A stretch of 39,512 nt of DNA, taken from positions 1-39,512 of the forward strand of contig JANYAF010000246.1 of the NCBI GenBank assembly GCA_025355175.1, in the 5' to 3' direction. How positions within the stretch are numbered: the first letter of the stretch is position 1; the number at the start of each line of letters is the position of its first letter. The position numbers and the translations under genes are program-made. Shown in pieces: positions 7,237 through 29,811 of the stretch. The stretch is from Deltaproteobacteria bacterium. Its GTDB lineage: Bacteria > Desulfobacterota > Syntrophia > Syntrophales > Smithellaceae. Under the pieces are notes generated by a model. It had not been told where the DNA came from. It did no database searches and saw nothing but the letters and a program-made list of their open reading frames with translations.

Positions 7237-7270
7237 ACGGAGACCTTTGCAAGGGCGATTTGGGCAGGAG

Positions 7271-7292: not shown

Positions 7293-7407
7293 GAGAGCTA
7301 TGGTGATGGCAGCCTCACGCAGGCTGAGCCCAGAGAATCATCATCATGAGTAAATGACGAACCGAGTCGTGCAAGGGCATCAATAAAGAAAAGGGAGCAG
7401 GAACGTA

Positions 7408-12893: not shown

Positions 12894-12907
12894 AGAACTG
12901 ATTCATT

Positions 12908-14797
12908 ATGTGTGGAATTACGGGAATATTTTCTTACCGCGACGGACAAAAGACCTGGCCCGTTCCGGAGCTCGAACGAATGCTCGACCGTCTGTCGCAC
13001 CGCGGCCCCGACGACAAAGGGATGTATGTGGCCGACGGACTTTTTCTGGGACATACCCGTCTGGCGGTGATCGATTTGTCGCCGACGGGGCATCAGCCAA
13101 TGATCACCGCCGACGGCCGGTACATTATCAGTTATAACGGTGAAATTTATAACTTCCGGCAGATCCGCGATGAACTCGAGCAGAAAGATTATCGATTCCA
13201 TTCGCAATCGGACACCGAAGTATTGCTGTACGCCTGGCAGGAGTGGCAGGAAGCGTGTTTAGATAAACTTGATGGAATATTTGCCTTTGCCCTTTACGAC
13301 AGTAAAGAAAAAGAACTTTTTCTTGTTCGCGACCACCTGGGAATTAAGCCGCTATTCTATATGTTACAACGCGGTCAAATATTTTTCGCTTCTGAACTGA
13401 TGGCTTTGTTTGGTCCGCTGAATGCCTGCCCGGAAATGGACACGGAAGACCTTGATTCCTATTTTACCTTTAACTATCTTCCTGCGCCGCGGACAGGTTT
13501 GAAAAAAGTCTGCCAGCTTCCACCCGGAAGCTTTTTATCGGTGAGCAGGCATGGTGAAACGCTTAAGCGTTACTGGCGGCCGGTTTATCAAACAGATCTG
13601 CCGTCGCGATCATCCGGGCAGACCGAACGCTTTCAGGCCTTGCTTTCATCATCGGTGAAATCGCAATTGGTATCGGACGCCCCGCTCGGTCTTTTTCTTT
13701 CAGGGGGATTGGATTCCTATGCCGTGGCGCTTTCCGCGGTCGAGGCCGGCCGTCATCCGGAGGCCTTCACCCTGGGCTTTGACGAAAAGAACTTCAGCGA
13801 GGTGCCCGAAGCCCGGCAGTATGCCCGGCACCTGGGCATCCCCAACGAGTCCACCAATTTCATTTGGAGCGAAGAAGAGATTTATGCGGCACTGGAGGCC
13901 ATGAACGAGCTGTTGGCCGACGCTTCCTGTTTTCCGCTGTTTCAGTTGTCCAGGTACGCCCGGAAGAGGGTTACCGTTGTCCTCGCCGGCGACGGCGGGG
14001 ATGAACTCCTGGCCGGATACGACACCTACAGAGCCGGAGAAATTACCCCCTTGATCAGAGGGATACCCCGCACTCTGCGAGGGTACTTGCGGGCCTTTGC
14101 CCGGTATCTTCCCTCGGATAATCGCCGTTATGGCATCAGAATGGTTACAGAGCGCCTTCTCGATGCGGCCGAAGAGGGGGCAGGTAGAGACCATGCCTCA
14201 TTCCGTCGCATTTTTCCCCCGGGGATGAAGAAACGTTTATATCATCCTGATTTCTTCCGGGAGTCGGTAAAATTTGATCCCGTGGGCGAATATGCGAATC
14301 TCATGAAAGAAGTTCCGGTGGAGAGGTCCTATTTGACGGCACGCCAGCATGCCGATTTGACGTTTCATTTGCCAAGTATTTTAGCCAAAGTCGACAGAAT
14401 GAGCATGGCCAACGGCCTGGAAGTAAGAGTGCCTCTTTTAAGCCGGCAGATGGTGGAATTTTGTATAAATATTCCTGATGACGCCAAAAGGACGGGTTAT
14501 AAAGGTAAACAGGTATTGCGGGAGGCGATTGCGCGGAAAGCACCCGGGAAAAGCTTGTCGCGTCCCAAAGCGGGATTCTTACCGCCCGTTGACCAGTGGT
14601 TCAGAGGAACCGGACCGATGAATGCCGTGTTTGCCGATCATCTTCAGCGGGCGAAGTCGTCTGTTGATTATCTGAACTGGGAAGAGGTCGGCCAGATCTG
14701 GGAGGAGCATCGAAAACACAAAATTGAAGCGGGATTCGTTCTTCTGGGAATTCTGCAGTTCATGAATTGGAGCCGGCAGTGCAGAGTCAGAGCGTAG
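12908..14797 (+). CDS. asnB: Asparagine synthase (glutamine-hydrolysing) family amidotransferase, probably glycan-modifying
   Basis: N-terminal MCGI (Ntn cysteine), HRGPD, YNGEIYNF, LSGGLDS, GDGGDELLAGY and KVDRMSMANGLEVRVP. Confidence 0.92.
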   Translation: MCGITGIFSYRDGQKTWPVPELERMLDRLSHRGPDDKGMYVADGLFLGHTRLAVIDLSPTGHQPMITADGRYIISYNGEIYNFRQIRDELEQKDYRFHSQSDTEVLLYAWQEWQEACLDKLDGIFAFALYDSKEKELFLVRDHLGIKPLFYMLQRGQIFFASELMALFGPLNACPEMDTEDLDSYFTFNYLPAPRTGLKKVCQLPPGSFLSVSRHGETLKRYWRPVYQTDLPSRSSGQTERFQALLSSSVKSQLVSDAPLGLFLSGGLDSYAVALSAVEAGRHPEAFTLGFDEKNFSEVPEARQYARHLGIPNESTNFIWSEEEIYAALEAMNELLADASCFPLFQLSRYARKRVTVVLAGDGGDELLAGYDTYRAGEITPLIRGIPRTLRGYLRAFARYLPSDNRRYGIRMVTERLLDAAEEGAGRDHASFRRIFPPGMKKRLYHPDFFRESVKFDPVGEYANLMKEVPVERSYLTARQHADLTFHLPSILAKVDRMSMANGLEVRVPLLSRQMVEFCINIPDDAKRTGYKGKQVLREAIARKAPGKSLSRPKAGFLPPVDQWFRGTGPMNAVFADHLQRAKSSVDYLNWEEVGQIWEEHRKHKIEAGFVLLGILQFMNWSRQCRVRA

Positions 14798-15507
14798 ATA
14801 GCAGTTCCTTCTATGACGCGCAATGGAAGGAATGGGGTGACATGATAAAGTATTCGCCGGCGCCGCGATTTCGGAGAACAAGAATCATCTCCTGGTTGAG
14901 CAAACTACCGGTTAGCTCGCTGCTGGATGTCGGTTGTGGCAATGGAGAGTTTCTTCTGCAGGCACACAAGGCCCTGCCCGGAGTACAATTTACCGGCGCC
15001 GATGTTGCGGCGGAGCTTATTTCCTCAAACCGGTTACGGATGCCGATGTTCAATTTCGAAACTTTGGATATCGGACGGAATATCTTGCCGGTCCGGTATG
15101 ATGCGGTGACCTGCATGGAGGTCGTTGAGCACTGTACGGACTATCAGGAGGTCATTGTCAGGCTGGCCGAGATGACCAGACGCTGGCTTTTCCTCACGGT
15201 GCCCTGCGGCCCCCTTTTCGAGATTGACCGCCGCGTTGGGCATGTCAAGCACTTCCGCGCCGAAGAGATGCGCGAGGCGCTGTCCCGGGCAGGAATGAAA
15301 ACGGTAAAAATGCAGCGCTGGGGATTTCCTTTTTTCAATCTCTACAAACATGCGATCAATCTTTCACCGGAGCGGATGTGCGAGTCTTTTCTTTCATCCA
15401 GAGGCTATTCCCGGCAGCAAAAGGTTCTTGCCAGCGCAACTTATCTTTCCTTCCAATTGTCTCTGCCGTATGGAGGGTATCAGCTGTTCGCCCTGGCCAC
15501 CCGCTGA
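14779..15507 (+). CDS. Class I SAM-dependent methyltransferase
   Basis: LLDVGCGNG, YDAVTCMEVVEH, FLTVP and DRRVGHVKHF. GTG at 14779 follows GGAG; TTG at 14767 is an alternative start. Confidence 0.85.
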   Translation: MQSQSVDSSSFYDAQWKEWGDMIKYSPAPRFRRTRIISWLSKLPVSSLLDVGCGNGEFLLQAHKALPGVQFTGADVAAELISSNRLRMPMFNFETLDIGRNILPVRYDAVTCMEVVEHCTDYQEVIVRLAEMTRRWLFLTVPCGPLFEIDRRVGHVKHFRAEEMREALSRAGMKTVKMQRWGFPFFNLYKHAINLSPERMCESFLSSRGYSRQQKVLASATYLSFQLSLPYGGYQLFALATR

Positions 15508-15555: not shown

Positions 15556-16554
15556 ATGAATAAACTACTTATTACCGGCGCCGACGGTTTTATAGGTTCT
15601 CATCTCACGGAGGCATTGATTACGCGCGGTTATAATGTCCGTGCCTTTGTCCTGTATAACTCATTTAATTCCTGGGGATGGTTGGATCATTCGGATCCGG
15701 AAATAAAAAAGAATATTGAAATCTTTGCGGGGGACGTGCGGGATCCTCATGGCGTCAGACAGGCGATGAAAGGGTGTGATGTTGTTTTCCATCTGGCTGC
15801 GCTGATATCTATCCCATACTCGTACCATTCGCCTGACACCTACATCGATACGAACGTAAAAGGCACACTGAATATCATACAGGCGGCGCGGGATCTGGGT
15901 ATATCGAGAGTTATTCACACCTCTACAAGTGAGGTTTATGGCACAGCCCGTTTTGTTCCCATTACGGAAGAGCATCCTTTGCAAGGCCAATCTCCCTATT
16001 CCGCAAGTAAAATTGGGGCTGACCATATTGCCATGTCTTTTTATCATGCCTTCAATACTCCCGTCAGTATTGTCCGTCCGTTTAATACCTACGGGCCGAG
16101 GCAATCCGCGAGGGCCATTATTCCTACGATTATCACGCAGATTGCCAGCGGTCGAAGAACAATAAAACTGGGATCTCTGAGCCCGACCCGTGATTTCAAT
16201 TATGTGGCAGACACCGTTAACGGTTTTATTGCCGTGTCAGAATCGGATCAGGCATTGGGGGAAGTGATTAATATAGGAAGCAATTATGAAATTTCTATAG
16301 CTGATACAGTCAAGCTCATTGCCGATATCATGAATGTACATATAGAGATTGAATGCGATTCACAACGGATCAGACCGGAAAAAAGTGAAGTGGAGCGATT
16401 GTGGGCAGATAACAGCAAGGCCCGGAAAGTGACCGGATGGATACCTGCTTGTGAGGGAATCGACGGCTTAAGACGAGGCTTGAAAGAAACAGTGGCATGG
16501 TTTATTAATTCGGATAACTTGAAACAGTATAAACCGGGAGAATACAATATTTAA
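15556..16554 (+). CDS. legB: NAD-dependent NDP-GlcNAc 4,6-dehydratase, LegB-type
   Basis: ITGADGFIGSHL, YNSFNSWGWLD, HLAALISIPYSY, QGQSPYSASK and RPEKSEVERL; first gene of the leg-type run. Confidence 0.88.
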   Translation: MNKLLITGADGFIGSHLTEALITRGYNVRAFVLYNSFNSWGWLDHSDPEIKKNIEIFAGDVRDPHGVRQAMKGCDVVFHLAALISIPYSYHSPDTYIDTNVKGTLNIIQAARDLGISRVIHTSTSEVYGTARFVPITEEHPLQGQSPYSASKIGADHIAMSFYHAFNTPVSIVRPFNTYGPRQSARAIIPTIITQIASGRRTIKLGSLSPTRDFNYVADTVNGFIAVSESDQALGEVINIGSNYEISIADTVKLIADIMNVHIEIECDSQRIRPEKSEVERLWADNSKARKVTGWIPACEGIDGLRRGLKETVAWFINSDNLKQYKPGEYNI

Positions 16555-17738
16555 TGGGAAACCTGGATATTGAGGGAATCATTAATGCCCTCAGAACCAT
16601 TACTAGCGGGCATCAGGGACCGGTTTCTCTCCACGAGCCAACCTTGCGTGGCAATGAATGGGCTTATGTAAAGGATTGTCTCGATTCGACATGGGTTTCC
16701 TACGTGGGCCAATATGTGGACAGGTTCGAATCCATGCTGGCCGAATTTACAGGTGTCAAAAAAGCGGTAGCCGTTGTTAATGGTACCACCGCACTGCATA
16801 TTGCCCTGAAATTGGCCGGAGTTGAACCGGGCGATGAGGTTTTTGTGCCGGCATTGACATTTGTTGCAACGGCCAATGCCGTGGCCTATTGCGGAGCAGT
16901 CCCTCATTTCGTGGATTCTGAAGAGAGAACCCTTGGACTTGATCCCCATAAACTGAGAGACTATCTGAAAAGTATTGCTCGGATTGACGTGGGCGGCTGT
17001 ACGAATAAATTTTCCGGAAGGCGGATAAAGGCCGTTATTCCGATGCACGCTTTCGGGCACCCTGTCGATCTTGATTCCCTTGCTGAAGTTTGCAAGGAAT
17101 ACAAAATAGAAATGATTGAAGATGCGGCAGAGTCTCTTGGTTCATACTATAAGGGTAAGCATACGGGGAATTGGGGAAAATTGTCTGTCCTGAGTTTTAA
17201 TGGAAACAAAACGATCACCACGGGCGGTGGCGGAGCGATCATGACCAATGATGAGCATCTGGGTAAAATGGCCAAGCACCTGACCTCAACTGCCAAGATT
17301 CCCCATCGGTGGGAATATCGCCACGACTATATCGGATACAACTACCGTCTTCCCAACATCAATGCCGCAGTGGGTTGTGCCCAGATGGAGCAGCTTCCTG
17401 AATTCCTGGTTCGGAAAAGGCATCTTGCAGAGCGTTATTGCGATACCTTCAAGAAAATACAAGGTGTCCGCTTTTTTAAAGAACCTTCTTTTGCCAGCAG
17501 TAATTATTGGTTGAATGTTCTCCTTTTAGATGAGGCTTCCTACAAAAAACGGGATGAGGTACTTGAGGCGACAAATGATCAGGGTTTCAAAACCCGTCCG
17601 GCATGGGATCTCCTGAATACATTGCCAATGTTTCAGGATTGTTCTGCCATGGATCTTTCCTGTGCGGAAAATTTGGTAAAGCGCATCGTTAATATCCCCA
17701 GCAGCTCGTTTTTAGGAAAGGCTAATGCACAAACGTAA
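16554..17738 (+). CDS. legC: LegC-family PLP aminotransferase (DegT superfamily)
   Basis: SLHEP, CLDSTWVS, EDAAESLGS, SFNGNKTITTGGGG and GYNYRLPNINAA. TAATG overlap with legB. Confidence 0.9.
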   Translation: MGNLDIEGIINALRTITSGHQGPVSLHEPTLRGNEWAYVKDCLDSTWVSYVGQYVDRFESMLAEFTGVKKAVAVVNGTTALHIALKLAGVEPGDEVFVPALTFVATANAVAYCGAVPHFVDSEERTLGLDPHKLRDYLKSIARIDVGGCTNKFSGRRIKAVIPMHAFGHPVDLDSLAEVCKEYKIEMIEDAAESLGSYYKGKHTGNWGKLSVLSFNGNKTITTGGGGAIMTNDEHLGKMAKHLTSTAKIPHRWEYRHDYIGYNYRLPNINAAVGCAQMEQLPEFLVRKRHLAERYCDTFKKIQGVRFFKEPSFASSNYWLNVLLLDEASYKKRDEVLEATNDQGFKTRPAWDLLNTLPMFQDCSAMDLSCAENLVKRIVNIPSSSFLGKANAQT

Positions 17739-18894
17739 GATTTGCGTTGTAACAGGAACAAGAGCTGAATACGGCTTGCTGTATTGGCTCATGAAAGAGA
17801 TCCAGGATGATCCGGATCTGGAGATACAGATTGCCGTCACAGGTATGCATCTTTCCCCCGAATTTGGTTTGACTTACAAAAAGATTGAGGATGATGGCTT
17901 CCATCTCGATGAAAGAGTCGAAATGCTTCTCTCCAGTGATACCTCCGTTGGAATTGCCAAATCCGTAGGCTTGGGCGTCATCGGATTTGCCGATGCCCTT
18001 GCTCGTTTGAATCCGGATATCATGGTCGTTCTTGGTGATCGATACGAGATATTCGCTGCCGTCCAGGCAGCCATGACTGCAAAAATTCCCATCGCCCACA
18101 TTCATGGTGGAGAATCGACGGTGGGGGCCATGGATGAAGCTATGCGACATGCCATCACGAAGATGTCCCATTTTCATTTTACGGCAGCGGAAGTTTATCG
18201 CAGGAGGGTTATCCAGTTGGGTGAAATGCCGGAGCGGGTACTGAATTATGGTGCTCCCGGTCTCGACAATCTGAACAGGACAGATCTCCTTGATAAAGAT
18301 GCTTTCGAAAAGGCCATTGGTTTTCATCTTGGGGATTTATCATTTTTGATAACATACCATCCCGTGACGTTAAGCCCTGAAAGTCCGGCACAAGCTTTAA
18401 GTGAATTACTAAAAGCCATTGATCAATTTTCTAATGCAAAGGTTATTTTCACAAAAGCGAATGCAGATACATCGGGACGAATCATCAATCAGAGAATCGA
18501 TGAGTACGTTGGAATGAATCCATTACGTGCCAAAGTATTTACATCCATGGGACGGATGCTCTACCTGAGCGCTGTCAAGCATGTGGATATTGTTATAGGA
18601 AATTCATCAAGCGGACTTCTCGAAGTGCCCGTCTTCAAAAAACCGACAGTGAATATGGGAGATCGTCAGCAAGGCCGATTAAGGGCTGACTCTGTAATCG
18701 ATTGCATGGAAAATGAACGAGAGATTGTTGAGGCCATCAAAAAAGGATTGTCTGATGATTTCAAAAGCATTCTGGGAAAAACCGTGTCTCCCTACGGACA
18801 CGGTAATGCATCTTTAAAGATTAAGGAATATTTAAAGAATGTGTCTCTCCAAAACGTTCTAATGAAGCAATTTCATGACATTCGTTATGATTGA
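17725..18894 (+). CDS. neuC: Hydrolysing NDP-N,N'-diacetylbacillosamine 2-epimerase (NeuC/LegG)
   Basis: VVTGTRAEYGLL, TGMHLSPEFG, LGDRYE, HIHGGE, GNSSSG and GDRQQGR. Confidence 0.92.
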   Translation: MHKRKICVVTGTRAEYGLLYWLMKEIQDDPDLEIQIAVTGMHLSPEFGLTYKKIEDDGFHLDERVEMLLSSDTSVGIAKSVGLGVIGFADALARLNPDIMVVLGDRYEIFAAVQAAMTAKIPIAHIHGGESTVGAMDEAMRHAITKMSHFHFTAAEVYRRRVIQLGEMPERVLNYGAPGLDNLNRTDLLDKDAFEKAIGFHLGDLSFLITYHPVTLSPESPAQALSELLKAIDQFSNAKVIFTKANADTSGRIINQRIDEYVGMNPLRAKVFTSMGRMLYLSAVKHVDIVIGNSSSGLLEVPVFKKPTVNMGDRQQGRLRADSVIDCMENEREIVEAIKKGLSDDFKSILGKTVSPYGHGNASLKIKEYLKNVSLQNVLMKQFHDIRYD

Positions 18895-19987
18895 CGATCA
18901 GAATAATTTTAATAAATCAGTCTATATAATCGCCGAGGCCGGCGTAAATCATAACGGCAGCCTTGAAATGGCAAAAAGGCTGATCGATGTTGCGGCTGCA
19001 GCCGGTGCCGATGCCGTGAAATTCCAGACCTTCAAGGCGGAAAAGGTCATCAGCAGATATGCACCCAAGGCCGAATATCAGAAAAAAGCGACTACCGAAA
19101 CGGAATCCCAATTAGAGATGGTCAAAAAACTGGAATTGGATGAGAATGCCCATCGTCTCCTGATCGAACATTGCCAAGCCAGAAATATCCAATTTCTATC
19201 CACACCGTTCGATTTTGACAGCATTGATCTCCTCGCCAACAAACTGGATCTTCCCCGTCTTAAAATCCCCTCCGGAGAAATCACCAGCGGGCCATACCTG
19301 CTGCACATCGCCAGGACGGGAAAACCGATCATCCTCTCGACGGGCATGAGCACCCTCGATGAAATTGAGACTGCCCTCGGCGTATTGGCGTTCGGATATT
19401 TGTTAATCAAGAAAAGGCCTTCTCCGGAAGAATTCCATGATGCTTATTGCTCTCAGGCCGGACGCAAAATCATAGAGGAAAAGGTAACTCTCCTCCATTG
19501 CACTACGGAATACCCTGCTCCGTTTGATGAAGTCAACCTGCGAGCAATGGCCACCATGCGCAACGCCGTCGGCCTGCCCGTCGGTCTATCCGATCACACA
19601 CCCGGCATCGCTGTGCCCATTGCCGCCGTCGCCATGGGTGCTGCTGTCATCGAAAAGCATTTTACTCTGGACAAAAATATGCCTGGACCGGATCACAAGG
19701 CATCCCTGGAACCTGATGAGCTTAAGGATATGGTCACGGCCATAAGGCAAGTGGAAAACGCCTTTGGGATCGGGCAGAAAGTGCCGTCGCCATCAGAATT
19801 GAAAAATAGAGACATCGCCCGTAAAAGTCTGGTTGCCTCCAAACCTATTTGCAAGGGGGATGTTTTCACGCAAGAAAACCTTACGATGAAAAGACCTGGA
19901 ACCGGTATTTCTCCCATGCATTATTGGGATCTGTTAGAAAAAATATCTGACAAAGATTATTCTGAAGACGAATTGATCAAAAGATGA
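18887..19987 (+). CDS. neuB: Nonulosonic acid synthase (NeuB/LegI) with C-terminal SAF domain
   Basis: IIAEAGVNHNG, ADAVKFQTF, KIPSGEIT, LHCTTEYP, SDHT, EKHFTLD, GPDHKASLEP and KRPGTGISP. ATG at 18875 is an alternative start. Confidence 0.93.
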   Translation: MIDDQNNFNKSVYIIAEAGVNHNGSLEMAKRLIDVAAAAGADAVKFQTFKAEKVISRYAPKAEYQKKATTETESQLEMVKKLELDENAHRLLIEHCQARNIQFLSTPFDFDSIDLLANKLDLPRLKIPSGEITSGPYLLHIARTGKPIILSTGMSTLDEIETALGVLAFGYLLIKKRPSPEEFHDAYCSQAGRKIIEEKVTLLHCTTEYPAPFDEVNLRAMATMRNAVGLPVGLSDHTPGIAVPIAAVAMGAAVIEKHFTLDKNMPGPDHKASLEPDELKDMVTAIRQVENAFGIGQKVPSPSELKNRDIARKSLVASKPICKGDVFTQENLTMKRPGTGISPMHYWDLLEKISDKDYSEDELIKR

Positions 19988-20622
19988 CACTCCCTGTAAT
20001 AATTATAGGCGCTGGGGGGCATGCCAAAGTCCTTATTTATTCTCTCAACGCCTTGCGGCATGAGATCATCGGGATTTTTCACCCGGGTACAACGCTAATC
20101 GGTCGATCCATCGCTGGGATCCGCGTTATTGGAAACGATGACAAGCTATTGGAATACGCACCTGATTCGATTGAACTTGTCAATGGCATCGGCTCCATAT
20201 CATCGACGGAAAAACGCAAAAACATCTTCATGAAATTTAAAAATAACGGTTATTCGTTCGCAACGGTAGTTCATCCTTCGGCAATAGTAATGAGCGATGT
20301 TCAGTTAGGCGAAGGCGTTCAAATCATGGCAGGCGCGATAATCCAACCGGGTTGCCGCATTGGCGATAATGTCATAATTAATACCGGAGCTATTTTGGAT
20401 CACGACTGTATAATCGGAGCGCATACGCATATTGCGCCGGGAGCTGTTCTTTCCGGCGATGTTTATGTCGGAGTGGCGAGCCATGTTGGAACCTCCGCCG
20501 TTGTCATTCAGGGGATAAAAATCGGCGAAAATGCCGTCATCGGCGCAGGAGCTGTTGTTATTAAAAATATCCCTGCCGGCAGCAAGGCGGTGGGTGTTCC
20601 CGCGAGGAATATAAAAAAATAA
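19984..20622 (+). CDS. neuD: NeuD/PglD/LegH-type hexapeptide-repeat sugar N-acetyltransferase
   Basis: IIGAGGHAK, VVHPSA, INTGAILDHDC, left-handed beta-helix repeats and GVPAR. Confidence 0.88.
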   Translation: MTLPVIIIGAGGHAKVLIYSLNALRHEIIGIFHPGTTLIGRSIAGIRVIGNDDKLLEYAPDSIELVNGIGSISSTEKRKNIFMKFKNNGYSFATVVHPSAIVMSDVQLGEGVQIMAGAIIQPGCRIGDNVIINTGAILDHDCIIGAHTHIAPGAVLSGDVYVGVASHVGTSAVVIQGIKIGENAVIGAGAVVIKNIPAGSKAVGVPARNIKK

Positions 20623-20623
20623 C

Positions 20624-21691
20624 ATGAAAGACTGGGAAAAAACTCTTATAAATCCCTCGCAATCTATTGTAGAGGCTATGCGTATTATTGATCGGAGCGC
20701 TCTGCAGATTGCCTTAGTGGTGGATGAGCAGACGAAGCTTTTAGGGGTTGTAACGGATGGCGATATCAGGCGCGGCATTCTAAACGGTGTGCAACTTGAT
20801 CAGCCTGTGACAAAGATCATGGCCGGCAAATTCACATCCGCTCAAGAAACGTCATCCAAGGAAGAGATCATTGCTTTGATGAAGGGAAAGGGATTAAATC
20901 AGCTTCCTCTCCTGGATGAAGAGGGACATGTCGTTAACCTGAAAGTATTGGTCGATTTGATCAATGTTCCCAAAACCGATAATGAAGTTGTCTTAATGGC
21001 CGGCGGCCTCGGCAACAGGTTAAAGCCACTGACTAACGATTGTCCGAAACCGATGTTGACTTTAAACGATAAGCCTATTTTAGAAATCATTTTAGAAAAT
21101 CTTATTCAACAAGGATTTAAGAAATTTTATGTATCGGTTAATTACAAAGCCGAAATGATCGAGAAGTATTTCGGTAAGGGAACGAAATGGGATGTAAAGA
21201 TCAGCTACCTTAAAGAAAAAAAGACTATGGGAACGGCAGGAGCTTTGGGATTATTGCCCAAGCGCCCGCGAGAACCTTTAATTGTCATGAACGCCGATTT
21301 ATTGACGAAGATTAATTGCAGACAGCTGCTGGACTTTCATAATACACACAAGGCGTTGGCAACGATGTGTGTGCGGGATTACCGTTTCCAGGTTCCCTTT
21401 GGAGTTGTCAATATCGATCAGTATCGGTTATGCGGCATAGATGAAAAGCCTACCCATCATTTCTTTGTTAATGCCGGTATTTATGTCCTTTCCCCGGATG
21501 CATTAGGATTCATTCCCAAAGGAAAAGCATATGATATGACGGAACTTTTTCAAGATCTGATTAAGTTCGACCATGAAGCAATCGCCTTTCCGGTTCGGGA
21601 ATATTGGTTGGATATCGGACGGTTCGATGACTATGAAAAAGCGAATTCGGAATATCAGAGAGTCTTTGAAAGGAATAATCCAAAGTTATGA
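20624..21691 (+). CDS. ptmE: CBS-domain nucleotidyltransferase (PtmE/LgaF-type guanylyltransferase)
   Basis: N-terminal CBS pair (GVVTDGDIRRG), MAGGLGNRLKPLT, PKPM, GTAGAL and EYWLDIGR. Confidence 0.85.
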   Translation: MKDWEKTLINPSQSIVEAMRIIDRSALQIALVVDEQTKLLGVVTDGDIRRGILNGVQLDQPVTKIMAGKFTSAQETSSKEEIIALMKGKGLNQLPLLDEEGHVVNLKVLVDLINVPKTDNEVVLMAGGLGNRLKPLTNDCPKPMLTLNDKPILEIILENLIQQGFKKFYVSVNYKAEMIEKYFGKGTKWDVKISYLKEKKTMGTAGALGLLPKRPREPLIVMNADLLTKINCRQLLDFHNTHKALATMCVRDYRFQVPFGVVNIDQYRLCGIDEKPTHHFFVNAGIYVLSPDALGFIPKGKAYDMTELFQDLIKFDHEAIAFPVREYWLDIGRFDDYEKANSEYQRVFERNNPKL

Positions 21692-23082
21692 AGATCGCCC
21701 TAATCCAACTCCCTCATTTTTACGGTGAAAACAGCCGCCCACCCGCCAATTATCCAATCGGTTTAGGCTATATTTCATCGGTTTTGTCCATGAACGGCAT
21801 TGAACATGAGGGGATCAATCTTTGGGAACAGGAAATGACAGTTGATCAGGCGATAAGCGCATTTGACTATTCCAAGTATGACGTCTTCGGGATCAGCGCC
21901 TATTCAACGCAATACAAATATCTCAAGGAATTTTCGCTGAGACTGAAATCCCGGTATCCGGACATTCCTATTGTCTGTGGCGGTCCGGGGCCGACATTCA
22001 GTTCAAAGATTATTCTGGGAAAAACGAGCGTTGATATCTGTGTGATCAGCGAAGGCGAAGAAACGTTCATCGATCTCTTAAGAAATATGGATGACCTTCG
22101 TTGCGTGGCCGGCATATCCTACAAAGAGAAGGGCGAGATCATTTGCACGCCGCGGCGGCCATACATCAAGGATCTGGATTCAATACCGTTCCCCAATCGT
22201 GCATTGTTCGATTTCCATGCGACCATCAAAAATAAAATGGCCGTTTTCCAGCAGAACGGGAAAGAGCGGCATATAACCGCGGATATCATTGCCGGACGGG
22301 GCTGTCCCTATCAATGCACCTTCTGCTCCAAAACTTTTTCGGGCATACGACTGCGTTCCGTTGGCCGCATCGCCGAAGAAGCCGAAAAACTCAAGGAGGA
22401 ATTTGGCATCAATCATCTTCAATTCAACGATGAACTTGTGCTGGTAAACAAGAAGCGCACGCTTGACCTCTGTGCCCGGCTGAAGGACCTTCAACTGGAA
22501 TGGATGTGCCAGGGCAGAATCGACCAGGTGGATGGGGAAATCTTGCGCGTGATGAAGGATTCCGGATGTGTTGCCGTGGGATACGGCGTGGAATCCGTTT
22601 CACAATCCATCCTGGACGCGATGAAAAAGAAGATCAAGGCGGAAAATATTATTCCCGTGATCAAGCTGACGCGGGAGATAGGCATCAATCCCATCATTCA
22701 ATATATGTACGGGTATCCGGGAGAAACGGATGAAACGATCGAAAGGACCTTTCAGTTCTTCAAGGAGCTCGACATCCCCTTTATCGGGCAAACGACCACG
22801 CCGATCCCCGGCTCGAAATTATACGAAGATTGCGTGGCGGGCGGCATTATTAAGGATGAGGAGACCTACTTGCTGAACCTCGATTCTGGATACAATCTGG
22901 CTGCAGGCAGCATAAATCTCACCAATTTTACGGACCGGGAACTGGCGCAAAAGCAAAGAAAACTGCAAATCAGGATTACCCATCAATATCTGAAAAAACG
23001 TCCTTTGCAATACGCATCCTTTGTTTCGGGAATATTGGCCAGGAAGGCAAACAGGTTCATAAAAAAGGCATTTGCTTCATGA
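21688..23082 (+). CDS. B12-binding-domain radical SAM protein embedded in the leg pathway
   Basis: PIGLGYI, FGISAYS, CGGPGPT, SEGEETF, GRGCPYQCTFC, GYGVES and PIPGSKLY. ATGA overlaps at both ends. Confidence 0.9.
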   Translation: MKIALIQLPHFYGENSRPPANYPIGLGYISSVLSMNGIEHEGINLWEQEMTVDQAISAFDYSKYDVFGISAYSTQYKYLKEFSLRLKSRYPDIPIVCGGPGPTFSSKIILGKTSVDICVISEGEETFIDLLRNMDDLRCVAGISYKEKGEIICTPRRPYIKDLDSIPFPNRALFDFHATIKNKMAVFQQNGKERHITADIIAGRGCPYQCTFCSKTFSGIRLRSVGRIAEEAEKLKEEFGINHLQFNDELVLVNKKRTLDLCARLKDLQLEWMCQGRIDQVDGEILRVMKDSGCVAVGYGVESVSQSILDAMKKKIKAENIIPVIKLTREIGINPIIQYMYGYPGETDETIERTFQFFKELDIPFIGQTTTPIPGSKLYEDCVAGGIIKDEETYLLNLDSGYNLAAGSINLTNFTDRELAQKQRKLQIRITHQYLKKRPLQYASFVSGILARKANRFIKKAFAS

Positions 23083-23990
23083 AAGCTCTGGTCATTGGTT
23101 ATGGCTCGATTGGGCGACGTCATATTCAGTTGCTCAATGAACTTGGTTGTGAAACTGCCCTGATCAGCACGCGCCGGATTGATTATTCACCTCTTTATTC
23201 AGACATTAAGAATGGATTGGAAAAACATCAGCCCGACTATGTCGTTATTGCCAATTCAACCGATGAGCATTATCGAACCTTTGTGAAGCTGGCCGATCTC
23301 GGATACAAAGGCATTGTGCTGATAGAAAAGCCACTGTTTCACCGCTTCGGGGAAGCGGCGTCCGGTGAAGATATGCAGACGTATGTGGCCTACAATCTTC
23401 GCTTTCACCCCATCGTCTCGCAATTGAAATCTTTTCTGGACAAAGAGAAAATAATTTCTGTCCTGGCTTATGTCGGTCAGTATCTTCCTGACTGGCGTCA
23501 GGAAAGAGATTATCGCCTGTCCTATTCCGCCCGGAAGGAAAGAGGGGGAGGCGTGCTGCGCGATTTGAGTCACGAACTGGATTATCTCGTCTGGATACTG
23601 GGAGGCTGGGAAAGACTGGTCGCCCAGGGTGGACATTACAGTCCCCTGGATATCAACAGCGAAGATACGGTTGCCCTTATGATGGAAACCCCGCGTTGTC
23701 CGATTGTCAGCGTGCAACTAAATTATTTGGACCGTACCACAAGAAGATTCGTGGTTGTTAATACGGCAAAACACACGATTGAGGCCGATTTAATCAGGGG
23801 AACAATAACCATAGACCGCGACGCGGAAAAATGTAATTTGGAAAAGGATGTATCGTACCGTCAAATGCACAAAACGATTTTAGAAGGCGGCAACAACGCT
23901 TTGTGTACTTTTAAGGAAGGCCTCGAAGTTCTGCGGATGATTGAAGCTGCGGAACTTTCCATAGAGCAAAAGAAATGGATCGAGAGATGA
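23079..23990 (+). CDS. ptmF: Gfo/Idh/MocA oxidoreductase (PtmF/ElaA-like)
   Basis: IGYGSIGRRH, LIEKP, AYNLRFHP, GQYLPDWR and GGGVLRDLSHELD; conserved position before the CMP synthetase. Confidence 0.75.
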   Translation: MKALVIGYGSIGRRHIQLLNELGCETALISTRRIDYSPLYSDIKNGLEKHQPDYVVIANSTDEHYRTFVKLADLGYKGIVLIEKPLFHRFGEAASGEDMQTYVAYNLRFHPIVSQLKSFLDKEKIISVLAYVGQYLPDWRQERDYRLSYSARKERGGGVLRDLSHELDYLVWILGGWERLVAQGGHYSPLDINSEDTVALMMETPRCPIVSVQLNYLDRTTRRFVVVNTAKHTIEADLIRGTITIDRDAEKCNLEKDVSYRQMHKTILEGGNNALCTFKEGLEVLRMIEAAELSIEQKKWIER

Positions 23991-24709
23991 AGCGATTATG
24001 TACAATCTGCGCCCGTGGGGGTTCGGAAGGGGTCAAGGGGAAGAATATCCGGCCATTGCTGGGCAAACCGCTGATCGTATACAGTATTGAACAGGCTCGA
24101 CAAACCGGGCTTTTTGCGGCCATCGCCGTCGACAGTGATTCCGAGGAAATACTTTCCGTGGCCGCCGGCGCGGGGGTGGATTATCTGATCCGACGTCCGG
24201 CGGAGCTGGCCACGCGCACTGCTCCCAAATTACCCGTCATCCGTCATTGTGTCGAGGCGGTGGAAAAGCTTGCCGGCGACCGTTATGAGACGATTGTGGA
24301 TCTGGATGCCACGTCCCCGCTGCGCAATGTCGAGGACATCATCCGGGTTGTGGAACTGCTGGAAAGCCGACAGGTATCCAATGTCATCACCGGCACGCCA
24401 GCGCGACGTTCCCCGTATTTCAATCTTGTAGAACTGAATGAAGGCGGCGTTGTCCGGCTTTCCAAATCTCTTCCCGTGTCGGTCACAAGAAGGCAGGATT
24501 CCCCCATGTGCTATGACATGAATGCATCAATCTATGCATGGAAACGCGATGTTTTATTGAGCAGTTCTAGCATCTTTAATGCTGATACTTTATTATATGT
24601 GATGCCGGAAGAACGTTCGATTGATGTGGATAGTGAAATAGATTTTGGTTTTGTTGAGTATATAATGAAAAAAAATAGTCGGAATCAAATTATTCCTGAT
24701 GAAAAGTAA
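23987..24709 (+). CDS. neuA: CMP-nonulosonate synthetase (NeuA/LegF/PtmB)
   Basis: ICARGGSEGVKGKN, RPAELA, DLDATSPLR, RRQD and ERSIDVD. ATGA overlap with the upstream gene. Confidence 0.9.
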   Translation: MKRLCTICARGGSEGVKGKNIRPLLGKPLIVYSIEQARQTGLFAAIAVDSDSEEILSVAAGAGVDYLIRRPAELATRTAPKLPVIRHCVEAVEKLAGDRYETIVDLDATSPLRNVEDIIRVVELLESRQVSNVITGTPARRSPYFNLVELNEGGVVRLSKSLPVSVTRRQDSPMCYDMNASIYAWKRDVLLSSSSIFNADTLLYVMPEERSIDVDSEIDFGFVEYIMKKNSRNQIIPDEK

Positions 24710-25292
24710 TTCATTTATAGCCGAAATTTTTGCCAGGATTTCTTTTTGGAAAAAGACGGATAGAATAGGACCTGATATTCCGTGGACTCATTGGTTGCTG
24801 CATTTTAAATCTACCATGCTGCGGTTGTGCAAAAGGAAGTTTAAAAACTTTGACGATACTGCAGAGTTCAGGCCGGGTGCATACGCTGTTTGCTGCTCCA
24901 AGATCAGTCTGGGGCACAGAGTTGTCATCCGTCCAGGTTGTATGCTTTTTGCCGATCCGCGAAATAATGGGGCAGGTATCACCATTGAAGATGATGTTGT
25001 GCTGGGATCCGGAGTGCATTTCTATTGCGGTAATCATAACTATCTTAATCCGGAAATTCCGATTATCGACCAGGGGCATGCGGCCTCGAAGCCTATTTTA
25101 TTAAAAAAAGGATGCTGGATTGGAGCCCGGTGTATCATTTTGTCGGGAGTTGTGGTTGGTGAAAATTCAGTGGTTGGAGCCGGGAGCGTGGTTGTTAAAA
25201 GCCTACCTGCCAGAGTGTTGGCTGTGGGAAATCCAGCCAGAATTATCAGGAAAATTGACGAAGCGGGTATCGAAAGAAATGCTGAAGAATAA
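24699..25292 (+). CDS. Hexapeptide-repeat acyltransferase (putative sugar O-acetyltransferase)
   Basis: NHNY..PIIDQG, CWIGARCIILSGVVVGENSVVGAGSVV and GNPARII. Confidence 0.82.
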   Translation: MKSNSFIAEIFARISFWKKTDRIGPDIPWTHWLLHFKSTMLRLCKRKFKNFDDTAEFRPGAYAVCCSKISLGHRVVIRPGCMLFADPRNNGAGITIEDDVVLGSGVHFYCGNHNYLNPEIPIIDQGHAASKPILLKKGCWIGARCIILSGVVVGENSVVGAGSVVVKSLPARVLAVGNPARIIRKIDEAGIERNAEE

Positions 25293-26049
25293 AGTTGTGG
25301 TCATAACCGGAGGAGCAGGTCTGCTGGGCCGCGCCTTTGTGCGTACTGTCGCCGGACACGGCGGGATCGCCGTTATTGCCGATCTCAACGCGGCAGCAGG
25401 GAATCAGTTTCTGCAAGAGTTGAAAAGCGAGAATCCTGAAATAAACGCTGACTGCTACGCGGTAGATATAACATCGAAAACTTCCCTGGAATCACTGATC
25501 ACCTGTCTGCATGAGAAATACGGCCGCATTAATGCTGTAGTCAACAATGCTTATCCGCGGACTAAGAACTACGGTCGTAAGTTTGAGGATGTATCCTACG
25601 ACGACTTCACTCAAAATGTGTCGATGCATCTGGGCGGTTATTTTCTGACATCCCAGCAATTTTCGCTGTATTTCAAAAAGCATGGATGCGGCGTGATCAT
25701 CAATATGGCCTCCGTATATGGTGTCGTTGCGCCGCGTTTTTCCGTTTATGAAGGCACTGCCATGACGATGCCGGTTGAATATGCCGCTATTAAATCAGCC
25801 ATTATTCATCTGACGAAGTATATGGCGCAATATTTCAAGGGGACGAATATCCGGGTAAATTGCATAAGTCCCGGCGGGATTTTAGACGGGCAACCTCAGC
25901 AGTTTCTTTCCCGCTATGGAAGCATGGCCGCATCCAAAGGCATGCTCGATCCCGAAGATTTGCAGGGCACCCTCTTGTTTCTTTTGAGTGATTGGTCCAA
26001 GTTTATCAACGGACAAAATATAGTTGTTGATGATGGCTGGACATTGTGA
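25279..26049 (+). CDS. ptmA: SDR oxidoreductase, PtmA/ElaC-like
   Basis: TGGAGLLG, VNNAYPR, MTMPVEYAAIK (YxxxK), SPGGI and GQNIVVDDGW. Start moved to ATG 25279. Confidence 0.85.
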   Translation: MLKNKVVVITGGAGLLGRAFVRTVAGHGGIAVIADLNAAAGNQFLQELKSENPEINADCYAVDITSKTSLESLITCLHEKYGRINAVVNNAYPRTKNYGRKFEDVSYDDFTQNVSMHLGGYFLTSQQFSLYFKKHGCGVIINMASVYGVVAPRFSVYEGTAMTMPVEYAAIKSAIIHLTKYMAQYFKGTNIRVNCISPGGILDGQPQQFLSRYGSMAASKGMLDPEDLQGTLLFLLSDWSKFINGQNIVVDDGWTL

Positions 26050-26062
26050 GGTGACAAGGCCG

Positions 26063-27606
26063 ATGCCTAATACAGAAACATCACTGAAGAAGCGCTACTT
26101 GTTTAAACTGATGACTAATTTTGTCGGCCTTGGCATTGGTCTTGTTACGCAGGCCATTGTGCCGCGGGTGCTGGGGCCTTCATCTTATGGAAATTTCTCA
26201 TTTCTGACAAACTTCTTCCTGCAACTTAACGGTTTTCTTAACCTGGATTCAGCGACAGCTTTTTATACGAAACTATCCCAACGGCAACAGGATAAAGGAT
26301 TGATAAGCTTTTATTTTTATCTGACACTGTTGTCCGGCTTGGTAATGGGGATATTGACTATAGCTATTTATCTTCTGGGGTTTGATCATCTTGTCTGGCC
26401 CCAGCAGAAAACTCTATTTGTTGTTCTGGCGGCTATATGGGCGTTCCTGCAGGTTTATAGTGTTACGTTAGTCCAGGTGGCAGACGCTTATGGACTGACA
26501 ACTAAATCAGAAGTAGTAACCATGGTTCAGAAAATCATCGGATTAGTAATTATAGTTTTTCTGTTCTTTGGCAATATGCTGAGCTTGCTTAGTTATTTCG
26601 TTTTTCAACTTTTTATGTTTCTAATAATTATTAATTCCCTTTATGTATTGATCCGGAAATATAAAGGGGATATTTTCAGCCACTGGCGTTTGAACGGGGG
26701 ACAGTTAAGGTCATATATAAAAGAATTTACCTCCTTCTGTTTGCCTTTAATAATTTTTTCTTTTTTTGCTATTCTAGCGCAGATGCTGGATCGTTGGTTA
26801 CTGCAAAAATTCTCCGGTAGTGTGCAGCAAGGATTCTATGCATTGGCTTATCAGACGGGTACTGTCTGCTCCCTTTTTCTTTCTGCAATGATCCCACTAA
26901 TCATGAGAGAGTATGCCATCTTATTTGCAAAAGTTGATTTGGAAAGGATGCGTCAGCTCTTTACAAAGTATAACAAGATGCTCTGCGCAATTGCTGCATT
27001 TTTTGGATGTTTTCTAGCAGCGGAGGCAAAGAATGTCATGCTGATTTTCGGGGGGCAGGCTTACACCGGGGCTATTATACCCATTACGATCATGTGCTTT
27101 TTCCCGATTCAGCAAAGCTATGGTCAGATGAATGCGGCTTTTTTTTTGCCACTGCGCGAACCAAAACCTATAGCCGCATAGGACTTGGTTTGTTTATTAT
27201 TGGGTTGCCTTTGTCTTTTTTCATTATCGGACCAAGGACTTATGGCGCTTTGGGAGCCGGTGCGACCGGCTTGGCCGTCAAAACGCTATTGATGACTTTT
27301 CTCAGCGTCAATATTCAGCTATGGTTTAATACTAAATTCCTCCGTTTATCTTTCTGGGAATTTATCTGGCATCAGGCCGTCGTTATCATTCTTTTTATCT
27401 CAGTGTCTTCTGGATGCTCCTATATGGTCTCATCATTTTTAGGCAAGGCTCATTTTCTTTGGCAATTCTTTATATCAGGCGTCTTTTATTCGGTTATCAT
27501 TCTGAGTCTGGTTTGGATTTTCCCTTGGATAGCTGCTCTGCGAAAAGATGAAATTACGGAGCTTCTAACTCAAGCAAGAAATAAGTGGCAACATAAATTC
27601 TTTTGA
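26063..27606 (+). pseudogene. wzx: Wzx flippase split by a frameshift at a T9 tract (phase variation or sequencing error)
   Basis: The first part has VPRVLGPSSYG and DRWLLQKFSGSVQQGFYALA; a second frame carries the remaining TMs (LGAGATGLAVK). One extra T at 27139-27147 fuses them into a 514-aa protein. Confidence 0.8.
27139..27147 (+). repeat. T9 homopolymer at the wzx frameshift junction
   Basis: GCGGC-TTTTTTTTT-GCCACT. Confidence 0.85.
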
Positions 27607-27782: not shown

Positions 27783-28928
27783 ATGAAGAAAATTATTTTT
27801 GTATCATTCATTCGCTTGACCCCTAAGGTGTTACACGACTGGTATATTGATTATATGATTGCCCAAGGTGTAATAGTCGAGTACTGGGATATTGTCGCTC
27901 TGGTGCGGGAAGAATATAATGAGGTTGGAGAACTGGATACAGATTATCTTAGTGTTTTCCGGACATTTAGCGCCGTTGAGGAAAAGTTGCAGCTTTGCGA
28001 AAACAGAGATGCTTTTTATGTGATGTTGATTAATTATGCCGGACGTTTTGCCAGAATATTTCGACTGCTATCAAAGTATAATTGTCGAATGATATTTATT
28101 GCATCGGGAACTATGCCGGTTAAATCTGTTTCTATCTGGGGAAAAGTGTTTCGCCGGTTATCTAATCCTTTGGGCTTAGTGGACATACTATTGGACAAGG
28201 CAAAAGCAATTGCCTATAGAAGATTAAAGCTTGTTAAGCCATTCCATATTATTTTTGCTGCGGGGCAGGTAGAAATGACCAATAACCAGTATGCAGAGAA
28301 GGTGATACCGATCAATTATATTGATTATAATGATTACATCAATGCTAAGGCTAAAGGAGATAGAGTTGTAAAAAGACATTATGCGGTGTTTCTTGATATT
28401 AATCTCCCTTTCCAGTCTGATCTGAAAATCTGCAATATGCCGGCAGTCAATTCCGGCAGCTATTACCGATCACTTAATCGGTTTTTTGATTTACTGGAAT
28501 TGGAATATGACGTCAAGACTGTCATTTCCGCACATCCAAAATCTGATTATAGTATGGAAACATTTCAAGGGCGGGAGATTTATCGCGGCCGCACGGCTGA
28601 GATAGTAAAAGATGCTGAATTTGTTATTTCTCACACAAGCTTATCGTTTGGTTATGCCGTGCTTAATTTCAAGCCATTAATTTTTATATATACGGATGAA
28701 ATGAAGTTTTTATATAGCAGTAATTTGATCCGACAACTGAATGATTTTGCAAGTTTTCTCGATGCAGCACTCTACAACGTAGATGAAATAACACACGGCC
28801 GGCAAATTATTATGAAGGATGTTAACCTTGAAAACTATGAAAAATATAAATATAGTTTCCTGACCACCCCAGTGGCTGAATGTTCGACAACGCAGGAAAT
28901 AATATGGCGTGAGATGAGTAAATTATAA
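27783..28928 (+). CDS. Putative nonulosonate (sialyltransferase-like) glycosyltransferase
   Basis: Soluble protein with AVFLD, VISAHP (HP motif) and VISHTS motifs like bacterial GT-B sialyltransferases; first gene after wzx. Confidence 0.6.
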   Translation: MKKIIFVSFIRLTPKVLHDWYIDYMIAQGVIVEYWDIVALVREEYNEVGELDTDYLSVFRTFSAVEEKLQLCENRDAFYVMLINYAGRFARIFRLLSKYNCRMIFIASGTMPVKSVSIWGKVFRRLSNPLGLVDILLDKAKAIAYRRLKLVKPFHIIFAAGQVEMTNNQYAEKVIPINYIDYNDYINAKAKGDRVVKRHYAVFLDINLPFQSDLKICNMPAVNSGSYYRSLNRFFDLLELEYDVKTVISAHPKSDYSMETFQGREIYRGRTAEIVKDAEFVISHTSLSFGYAVLNFKPLIFIYTDEMKFLYSSNLIRQLNDFASFLDAALYNVDEITHGRQIIMKDVNLENYEKYKYSFLTTPVAECSTTQEIIWREMSKL

Positions 28929-28962
28929 TTTCCCCCAAAATGGAGAGGAGGAGTAATCAAGT

Positions 28963-29811
28963 ATGATCAGAAGATTAAAAAATTATCTACTGGATATGCG
29001 TGATCGTCAGCGAATATGCATTTCTTTATGCAAAGGAACACCAATGATGCAAGCGAGAACCATCAATTTGAAGCAACCGGCGACTTGGGAGTTTTCGGCA
29101 TTCAGTCAAAATGGGGAAGATGGGATTCTTGATGTTTTACGCCAACAACTTGCTAGTGAAAACCGTTATTTTATTGAGATTGGTTCGGCAGACGGAATTG
29201 ACAATAATTCTGCTTGGCTTGTAGTGGCTGAGAAATATAATGGCATTATGATTGATGGGGATCCTCGACTCGTTGAACGAATGAAAAGGATGATAGCTGG
29301 TTATAGCATTGGTGTAGAGTGCTACAATATTTTTGTTACAGTTGATAGCGTGCGTGATTTGAAATCAATGGCGCTTCATCTTGATCCCGACGTCTTTTGT
29401 CTTGATACTGATGGGAACGATTATTATATTGCGAAAGCTATATTGGACACCGGGTTTCGCCCTAAAATATTTGTCGTTGAATACAACTCTGTCTTTGGCC
29501 CGACGCGAAGTATGACCATTCAGTATAAGGAAGATTTTGTGCATACAACCGCGCATCCTACCCATCTTTACTATGGTGTGTCAATATCGGGATGGCGAAA
29601 ATTCTTTAGGGGAAACGGCTATCATTTTGTCACAGTAGACCGGAATGGCGTTAATGGATTCTTTGTGGATCCGGCCTGCTTCGATAAGGATTTTCTGTCA
29701 GGGATCGAACCGCTGGAATTCGCTGAAAATCAATATCAGTATAAAAAATTCAGGAAGTCGAGTGAAAAGCAATTTCAGCTTATTGCTGATCAAAGCTTTG
29801 TTCCTATTTGA
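28963..29811 (+). CDS. FkbM-like putative methyltransferase
   Basis: FSQNGEDGI, FIEIGSADG, LDTDGNDY and VVEYN. RBS GAGGAG. Confidence 0.65.
   Translation: MIRRLKNYLLDMRDRQRICISLCKGTPMMQARTINLKQPATWEFSAFSQNGEDGILDVLRQQLASENRYFIEIGSADGIDNNSAWLVVAEKYNGIMIDGDPRLVERMKRMIAGYSIGVECYNIFVTVDSVRDLKSMALHLDPDVFCLDTDGNDYYIAKAILDTGFRPKIFVVEYNSVFGPTRSMTIQYKEDFVHTTAHPTHLYYGVSISGWRKFFRGNGYHFVTVDRNGVNGFFVDPACFDKDFLSGIEPLEFAENQYQYKKFRKSSEKQFQLIADQSFVPI

Follow-up and report, generated by a model that had tools for sequence, protein, structure and literature searches.

Legionaminic acid (Leg) and pseudaminic acid (Pse), the bacterial counterparts of sialic acid, shape phage, immune and lectin recognition of flagella, capsules and O-antigens. 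To our knowledge, the decorations known on these nonulosonic acids (NulO) are all N-acyl, N-methyl, amidino or O-linked groups introduced by ordinary two-electron enzymes. In Campylobacter jejuni, the pathway to cytidine monophosphate (CMP)-activated Leg is encoded by genes for LegB, C, H, G, I and F together with PtmE, PtmF and PtmA, the cassette behind the curated models TIGR04180 and TIGR04181. Most of the characterised class B (B12-binding) radical S-adenosylmethionine (rSAM) enzymes are C- or P-methyltransferases, and those acting on sugar- or nucleotide-linked substrates include GenK and GenD1 of gentamicin biosynthesis and Fom3 of fosfomycin biosynthesis, whose substrate is cytidylylated 2-hydroxyethylphosphonate. 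Here we analyse a class B rSAM gene placed within a Leg operon on a 39,512-nucleotide stretch (contig JANYAF010000246.1, hereafter the window) of the genome of a deltaproteobacterium of the family Smithellaceae. The gene is intact, and its protein family and the clade containing it are tied to NulO clusters in at least three lineage sets, namely the order of the window genome, Omnitrophota and metagenome contigs. We propose, with a probability of roughly 0.5, that its product (the query) is a dedicated cobalamin-dependent tailoring enzyme of the surrounding Leg pathway, most likely C-methylating.

The Leg pathway and the rSAM superfamily are both known, and it is their combination that is undescribed. 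Full-text literature searches retrieved no paper tying rSAM or B12 enzymes to legionaminic, pseudaminic, nonulosonic or sialic acid, or to flagellin glycosylation chemistry, in agreement with the first-pass annotation, which knew of no sialic-acid-like sugar made by a class B rSAM enzyme. Three papers touch on the subject in the excerpts available. Phase-variable loci of Campylobacter fetus include MoaA/NifB/PqqE-type rSAM, methyltransferase, formyltransferase and dehydrogenase genes (PMC6321876); as excerpted, these rSAM genes are uncharacterised and are not class B. Methylated Pse derivatives have been predicted in Clostridium as products of ordinary methyltransferases, radical and cobalamin enzymes going unmentioned in the excerpted passages (PMC13317340). 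Finally, Magnetospirillum gryphiswaldense and Methanococcus appear, on mass-spectrometric evidence, to contain rare “potential 10 C” ulosonic acids; the excerpted part of that study assigns no enzyme to them and discusses promiscuous synthases or aldolases as the source of the 10 C compounds (PMC8157484).

The query gene and its legionaminic acid operon

The query open reading frame (ORF) is intact and has zero internal stops. Its 464-residue product passes the Pfam thresholds for an N-terminal B12-binding domain (PF02310, residues 22-130, 54.3 bits against a cut-off of 32.1) and a Radical_SAM domain (PF04055, residues 200-357, 78.4 bits against 29.5), and carries the CxxxCxxC cluster motif as C206-P-Y-Q-C210-T-F-C213, which is invariant among the 56 family members that we aligned. 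As read from the sequence, the ORF on its 5' side ends at 21691 and the one on its 3' side starts at 23079, giving 4-nt ATGA overlaps with its start and its stop, respectively. The ORF, the Pfam domains and the junction sequences thus confirm the first-pass description of an intact B12-binding/CxxxCxxC gene lying between ptmE-like and ptmF-like genes with ATGA overlaps at both ends, and the arrangement suggests that the query is probably co-transcribed, and probably also translationally coupled, with ptmE, ptmF and legF. Its base composition (GC 0.48, and 0.58 at third codon positions, compared with 0.42-0.50 and 0.42-0.53 for the remaining genes of the operon) bears no clear sign of recent insertion. 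All genes between 15556 and 27181 are on the forward strand, and their junctions are gaps of at most 1 nt or overlaps of at most 26 nt:

15556..16554, forward strand, legB, NAD-dependent 4,6-dehydratase (TIGR04180, 545.8 bits against a cut-off of 475)
16554..17738, forward strand, legC, aminotransferase (TIGR04181, 546 bits against 420)
17725..18894, forward strand, legG/neuC-type hydrolysing 2-epimerase (TIGR03568, 477.9 bits against 235.9)
18875..19987, forward strand, legI/neuB-type nonulosonate synthase (TIGR03569, 514.6 bits against 399.65; Pfam NeuB and SAF)
19984..20622, forward strand, legH/neuD-type N-acetyltransferase (TIGR03570, 239.4 bits against 160.8)
20624..21691, forward strand, ptmE-like sugar-1-phosphate nucleotidyltransferase with an N-terminal CBS domain (Pfam CBS and NTP_transferase)
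21688..23082, forward strand, the query, class B (B12-binding) rSAM enzyme, 464 aa (Pfam B12-binding and Radical_SAM)
23079..23990, forward strand, ptmF-like GFO/IDH/MocA oxidoreductase (Pfam)
23975..24709, forward strand, legF-like CMP-nonulosonate synthetase (CTP_transf_3, 76.8 bits; PseF model at 123.3, below its cut-off of 205.7)
24699..25292, forward strand, hexapeptide-repeat acetyltransferase, probably an O-acetyltransferase (Hexapep; WcaF and maltose O-acetyltransferase-like matches below cut-offs)
25279..26049, forward strand, ptmA-like short-chain dehydrogenase (NF006619, 360 bits against 255; PtmA model NF050062 at 257.6, below its cut-off of 350)
26024..27181, forward strand, Wzx-type flippase (Pfam Polysacc_synt)

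Five models (TIGR04180, TIGR04181, TIGR03568, TIGR03569 and TIGR03570) thus score above their cut-offs, in addition to a nucleotidyltransferase and a CTP_transf_3 protein. “ptmE-like” and “ptmF-like” were assigned by domain architecture and context, as curated equivalogs do not exist for them. For the ptmA-like gene we took the ATG at 25279 as the start; the listed ORF starts at a TTG at 25120, and both NF006619 and NF050062 match this longer version from residue 54. Judged by its gene content, the window holds a complete Leg operon plus two extra genes within a larger locus, which the Wzx-type flippase identifies as a surface polysaccharide locus. All functions of the C. jejuni CMP-Leg pathway are also encoded in this operon, LegB and LegC passing their equivalog cut-offs, and it differs from that pathway by the addition of the class B rSAM gene and the hexapeptide acetyltransferase gene, and by an AsnS-like amidotransferase and a methyltransferase gene just upstream. 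The hexapeptide acetyltransferase gene, which separates the legF-like gene from the ptmA-like one, is the second non-canonical gene of the operon and possibly encodes a sugar O-acetylase.

Relatives of the query in nonulosonic acid clusters

Among 5.8 billion clustered proteins searched, at least 120 orthologues of the query were listed (42-85% identity), nearly all of 440-498 aa with few truncated entries, and almost all metagenomic; the few labelled members come from metagenome-assembled genomes of Deltaproteobacteria, Elusimicrobiota and Omnitrophota. The 56 that we aligned (about 450-490 aa) have 46 invariant columns. The gene is seldom found in the lineage of the window genome: none of the 46 other genomes of the genus has it, nor do the 40 relatives searched, where the best match is a paralogue at 33% identity, and no orthologue was found in the 399 other genomes of the phylum sample (E <= 1e-90). 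In the order sample (338 genomes including that of the window, identical to the class-level sample), one of the 337 other genomes, G1049, encodes an orthologue (42% identity, E 7e-105). The ptmF-like gene (E <= 1e-40) is likewise absent from all 40 relatives, which makes the ptmF part of the operon an accessory trait of the window genome, and these comparisons suggest that the whole leg cluster is probably specific to it. The three closest rSAM orthologues (74-82% identity) and the three closest PtmF homologues (71-75% identity) occur on equally sized contigs (96905, 43392 and 69445), which fits co-inheritance of the two genes, longest-contig size being a weak key. A fourth size match, 5802, was not counted as its sources differ. 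The PtmF homologues at 69% and 63% identity lie on long contigs (218132 and 57137) common to none of the 120 listed rSAM matches, a hint, by the same weak key, that the rSAM gene may be missing from some close Leg clusters.

To describe gene neighbourhoods, we called an rSAM gene NulO-linked when a NeuB-like or LegF-like (CMP-synthetase) gene, found by tblastn with the Leg proteins of the window, lay within 10 kb. Among the loci of the query family with readable flanks, three of four are in Leg- or Pse-type clusters (L015, L143 and L120), the fourth (L016) being an uninformative 3.8-kb contig. Omnitrophota yielded a query match with E <= 1e-65 (32-40% identity) in 24 of 401 genomes, and a NeuB-like gene lies near the match in 16 of these 24 loci, for which about 9.3 kb was taken on each side. 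In five of the NulO-linked Omnitrophota genomes, of 1.6-4.1 Mb, NeuB-family matches number only 1-5, so that chance proximity would be expected at a few per cent. A scan of genome contigs with the single query protein gave four distant paralogues (28-33% identity), three of them without a nearby NulO gene. As a context control we used metagenome loci collected with generic rSAM motifs from one of 64 parts of the contigs; they are mostly paralogues, at best 40% identical to the query. The 79 listed loci were ranked solely by similarity to the query, context ignored, and six of them contain NulO genes (L015, L017, L018, L024, L025 and L047), five of these being among the eleven most query-similar.

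The linkage follows the phylogeny of these enzymes. In a FastTree tree of 211 class B proteins (56 family members, 154 proteins from the loci and the second enzyme encoded in the window), all family members fall in one 91-row clade (support 99), which also holds 35 locus proteins, 21 of them NulO-linked, or 22 of 36 in-clade locus rows when L143 is counted. Outside the clade only 6 of 120 rows are NulO-linked, and all six are second rSAM genes in loci that had been fetched for an in-clade gene. By source, the in-clade rows are linked in 16 of 22 cases for Omnitrophota and, for metagenome rows whose flanks total 8 kb or more, in three of five, against none of 64 such rows outside the clade. An IQ-TREE analysis of 80 rows also recovered the NulO-linked clade (SH-aLRT 98), with the query family nested inside it (support 100, 24 rows including L015, L143, L120 and L016). 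These counts are descriptive and are not a statistical test because the rows are related sequences. Unlinked rows within the clade include L119, L121, L126, L128 and L141, the short loci L006, L007, L016 and L019, and L127, in which PtmF-like and DegT genes are adjacent and the contig is cut 2.3 kb further on.

The recurrence inside leg/neu clusters that the first-pass annotation had put forward as a check of its idea was therefore found in the orthologue family as well as in the wider clade, as opposed to 0 of 64 out of the clade. Since homologue neighbourhoods are enriched for Leg/Pse clusters and those of other class B genes are not, there is good support for a role in making or tailoring NulO, and this is the part of the original interpretation that the neighbourhoods uphold; we consider it probable that the query acts in the NulO pathway at all. 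The near-gapless operon on one strand, together with the recurrence of relatives in such clusters, also indicates that its placement in the window is more than chance. It could nevertheless be that the query is merely housed in NulO operons and acts on another component of the same glycan, such as another sugar, the lipid carrier or the polymer. The window is indeed a large polysaccharide locus of mixed content that includes a second class B rSAM gene and three class I methyltransferase genes, many class B paralogues occur in glycan loci of Omnitrophota, and the six linked genes outside the clade are near NeuB merely through a common locus. Nonetheless, the query gene is internal to the leg operon and overlaps each of its neighbours by 4 nt, clade members adjoin a CMP-NulO synthetase or a pathway aminotransferase gene in many loci that otherwise differ in their glycan genes, and the linkage is specific to the clade, so that we regard such a role as improbable.

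The clusters themselves are of two kinds. According to NCBIfam matches, a clade member is found in Leg-type clusters in the window, L015, L139, L132, L134 and L143, and in Pse-type clusters in L123, L122, L120 and L017, so the clade ties to 5,7-diamino nonulosonic acid pathways generally. The position of the rSAM gene within the cluster varies, its commonest neighbours being genes for a CMP-NulO synthetase (adjoining it in L017, L018, L047, L118, L123, L124, L125, L133, L136 and L143) and a DegT-type aminotransferase. In L015 (40% identity) it lies between a gene for a LegC-like aminotransferase and sugar dehydratase genes, with NeuB, NeuD, LegF-like, PtmA-like and PtmF-like genes within 6 kb, and the LegC-like protein is a 473-aa fusion with a CBS (KpsF-like) domain (6520-7941) that matches the LegC model best (399.4 bits against a cut-off of 420). 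The order in L143, the locus of G1049 (42% identity), is NeuC-like, PIG-L deacetylase, PtmE-like, LegF-like, rSAM, unannotated ORF and LegC-like, and in L120 the rSAM gene belongs to a PseI/PseG/PseF-like cluster. In L139, from Omnitrophota, the order is LegB, LegC, LegH, LegI, LegG, rSAM, WbuZ/HisH/WbuX, PtmE, PtmF, LegF and PtmA, and in L123 it is PseB, second rSAM, PseC, rSAM, PseF, PseG, formyltransferase-like, deacetylase and PseI. The deacetylases of L123 and L143 are of the PIG-L type, and the window operon has no such gene. Insertion between ptmE and ptmF, as the first reading of the sequence had it, therefore holds for the window operon and not for the relatives, where the gene sits elsewhere in the cluster; the ptmE-ptmF-legF-ptmA order taken there as normally contiguous was seen once, in L139.

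These gene orders also bear on whether the query could replace a canonical pathway step by a radical route. Some rSAM-bearing Pse-type loci (L123, L122) have no recognisable PseH, as such a replacement might leave them. Yet every canonical Leg function (LegB, C, H, G, I and F-like plus PtmE-, PtmF- and PtmA-like) is encoded in the window operon, and in L139 as well, and none of the canonical Leg steps needs radical chemistry, which makes replacement very improbable. Given that the Leg pathway is complete without the query, the enzyme should add something to it.

Several of these loci have features of their own. In L139, a WbuZ/HisH/WbuX-type N-acetyl-sugar amidotransferase set (10663-13370) directly follows the rSAM gene and predicts acetamidino-Leg in that genome. 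Two further fusions occur in NulO clusters, an RmlD-like::PseC protein of 724 aa (L122, 4159-6333) and a CTP_transf_3::class III aminotransferase protein of 619 aa (L127, 6407-8266). Class B rSAM ORFs can also be numerous within a locus: the 18-kb metagenome locus L092 has seven and the Omnitrophota locus L135 has four, including three in tandem; neither array has a NeuB- or LegF-like gene close by.

Enzyme class and proposed chemistry

By sequence and by its predicted fold, the query is a class B rSAM enzyme that belongs to none of the named families. All 25 listed NCBIfam matches are below cut-off and no curated family is reached, the best being ApyD (163.9 bits against 750), HpnJ (161.4 against 577.6) and BchE (136 against 481.35), followed by P-methyltransferase families, AprD4, and MgmA-type and ribosomally synthesised and post-translationally modified peptide (RiPP) C-methyltransferase models. 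The named equivalogs that remain below cut-off comprise ApyD, HpnJ, BchE, the PhpK/Sden_1168 P-methylases, the MgmA-type TIGR04014, AprD4, BzaD, HpnR and KedN5. An AlphaFold2 model built with the 56 family members (mean pLDDT 91.9) has strands alternating with helices over residues 2-132. Its best Foldseek matches are MgmA, AprD4, OxsB, CysS, TsrM and TokK (TM-scores 0.62-0.72, identities 16-21%), with E values of 1e-21 to 1e-17 against MgmA, OxsB, CysS, TsrM and TokK; the same six enzymes are the solved structures matched by the profile of the query family, and identity to the listed structures is 14-21%. ESM Atlas returned only generic B12/rSAM clusters, from Omnitrophota, Thermodesulfobacteriota and Acidobacteriota. 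With GenK/GenD1/Fom3-type enzymes and with MgmA (9ccb), CysS (9n1b), TokK (7kdx) and TsrM (6wte), the query has in common an N-terminal B12-binding domain of the Rossmann type and an rSAM barrel with CxxxCxxC; like GenK and GenD1 it is embedded in a sugar pathway, and like Fom3 it has a genetic tie to a cytidylyltransferase. It differs from the known class B methyltransferases in reaching no curated threshold and in its place in a NulO pathway. The most fitting description of the query and its relatives is that of a new class B rSAM family dedicated to Leg/Pse-type pathways.

We favour C-methylation as the reaction because most characterised class B enzymes methylate, the N-terminal domain scores above the cut-off for B12 binding and the pathway needs no step from the query to be complete; taken separately, this assignment has slightly less than an even chance of being right. 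In such a reaction, the [4Fe-4S] cluster of the query and S-adenosylmethionine would generate a 5'-deoxyadenosyl radical, which would abstract a hydrogen from Leg, CMP-Leg or the 2,4-diamino-2,4,6-trideoxyhexose precursor linked to guanosine diphosphate, and methylcobalamin would then hand a methyl group to the resulting radical carbon. Candidate targets are the C9/C6 methyl, C3, a carbinol carbon and the N-acetyl methyl. The recurrent adjacency to a cytidylyltransferase gene suggests, by analogy with Fom3, a CMP-activated sugar as the substrate. This would yield a C-methylated sugar, heavier by 14 Da and with ten carbons in backbone or side chain, for incorporation into the surface polysaccharide. 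A C-methylating enzyme of this pathway could give the same mass as the “potential 10 C” ulosonic acids, as the excerpts of that study describe them (PMC8157484).

Several observations weigh against this proposal. On the side of gene context, 6 of the 22 in-clade Omnitrophota genes and two of the five long-flank in-clade metagenome genes have no NulO gene within 10 kb, and by the same rule no member of one subclade inside the NulO-linked clade (L008, L010, L029_8307 and L034_1) is linked. Two of these four, L008 and L010, are paralogues from the genus of the window genome itself; wider flanks of L010 (L147) gave no NeuB- or LegF-like match, and those of L008 (L146) only a weak NeuB-like match of 28% identity about 6 kb away. 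Residues specific to the entire NulO-linked clade are only two (F174 and N410), compared with about 25 for the query family, so the clade may hold several reactions or substrates. The context of the family itself comes from four loci and, indirectly, three contigs, out of at least 120 listed orthologues. On the side of chemistry, the substrate, the product and cobalamin binding are all predicted from sequence and model, the best NCBIfam matches are mixed, with the non-methylases HpnJ, BchE and AprD4 beside P- and C-methyltransferase families, and AprD4 and CysS tie for the top TM-score at 0.72, OxsB being another non-methylase among the fold matches.

This mixture bears directly on the possibility that the query tailors the NulO by radical chemistry other than methyl transfer, for example by dehydration or deoxygenation of a vicinal diol or amino-alcohol, by epimerisation (as in 8-epi- or 4-epi-Leg) or by rearrangement of the skeleton. 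Dehydration would resemble the action of AprD4, the sugar 1,2-diol dehydratase of apramycin biosynthesis, which is reported not to use cobalamin, and the neighbouring oxidoreductase would reduce the resulting ketone; rearrangement would recall OxsB, or HpnJ, which has been proposed to rearrange an aminosugar moiety. AprD4 (6fd2), whose substrate is an aminosugar, ranks in the top two by both sequence and fold, and HpnJ and BchE are among the best NCBIfam matches of clade members as well as of the query. A GFO/IDH/MocA oxidoreductase gene lies directly downstream of the query gene, and one is also adjacent in the Pse-type loci L122 and L127, where it is not canonical. However, AprD4, the top profile-to-sequence match among solved structures (E 1.9e-29), aligns across the core only, its model NF033070 covering residues 158-392 with 107.6 bits against a cut-off of 500, whereas the N-terminal domain of the query scores as B12-binding in Pfam and the matches to the BchE, PhpK, HpnR and MgmA-type models extend over this domain. 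The hopanoid cyclitol-ether enzyme HpnJ and the bacteriochlorophyll enzyme BchE match the query across the whole length, but with scores far below the cut-offs, and the query gene has no hopanoid or chlorophyll context. The adjacency of ptmF in the window says little, because ptmF-like genes are canonical in Leg clusters devoid of rSAM genes. Considering also the prevalence of methylases among characterised class B enzymes, non-methyl chemistry seems to us unlikely, though a serious contender.

The wider locus and surface-sugar diversity

Outside the leg operon, the polysaccharide locus of the window also contains glycosyltransferases, three class I methyltransferases, the AsnS-like amidotransferase and the second B12-binding rSAM gene (9198-10736). 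The AsnS-like glutamine amidotransferase gene and a class I methyltransferase gene (12908-15507, forward strand) are directly upstream of legB and, with a GC content of 0.53-0.54 in a window of 0.445, may be a separately acquired tailoring pair. The second rSAM gene (forward strand, 512 aa) follows genes for a family 2 glycosyltransferase and a class I methyltransferase (7408-9194). Its product is outside the NulO-linked clade in both trees and is sister to L140_686 (37-41% identity), whose gene precedes an AsnS-like gene by about 300 bp. The polysaccharide locus also includes, at 3044-4653 on the forward strand, a ParB-like gene with ParB_N and HTH_ParB domains and an ORF of no family that is rich in AT (GC 0.36). 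Five ORFs of 282-684 aa with no Pfam match at E <= 1e-5, all on the forward strand in the regions 5182-7236, 10986-12893, 27783-29811 and 35507-36988, may be polymerases, ligases or transferases of a novel kind that act on the nonulosonate.

In its fullest form, our proposal is that the query catalyses the first cobalamin- and rSAM-dependent step described for sialic-acid-like sugars, methylating Leg or a nucleotide-linked precursor at an unactivated carbon, and that sister families do likewise on Pse, the products being “homo-nonulosonic” ten-carbon or branched acids; we hold this version tentatively, with the odds somewhat against it. If it is true, the carbon skeleton or an unactivated side-group carbon of a NulO would be edited, giving a new natural class of nonulosonic acids and a new class of substrates for cobalamin-dependent rSAM enzymes. 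Enzymes of the query type would then be the biosynthetic origin of the “potential 10 C” ulosonic acids, to judge from the excerpted description of these compounds (PMC8157484), and anaerobes and uncultured phyla would possess a hidden layer of surface-sugar diversity.

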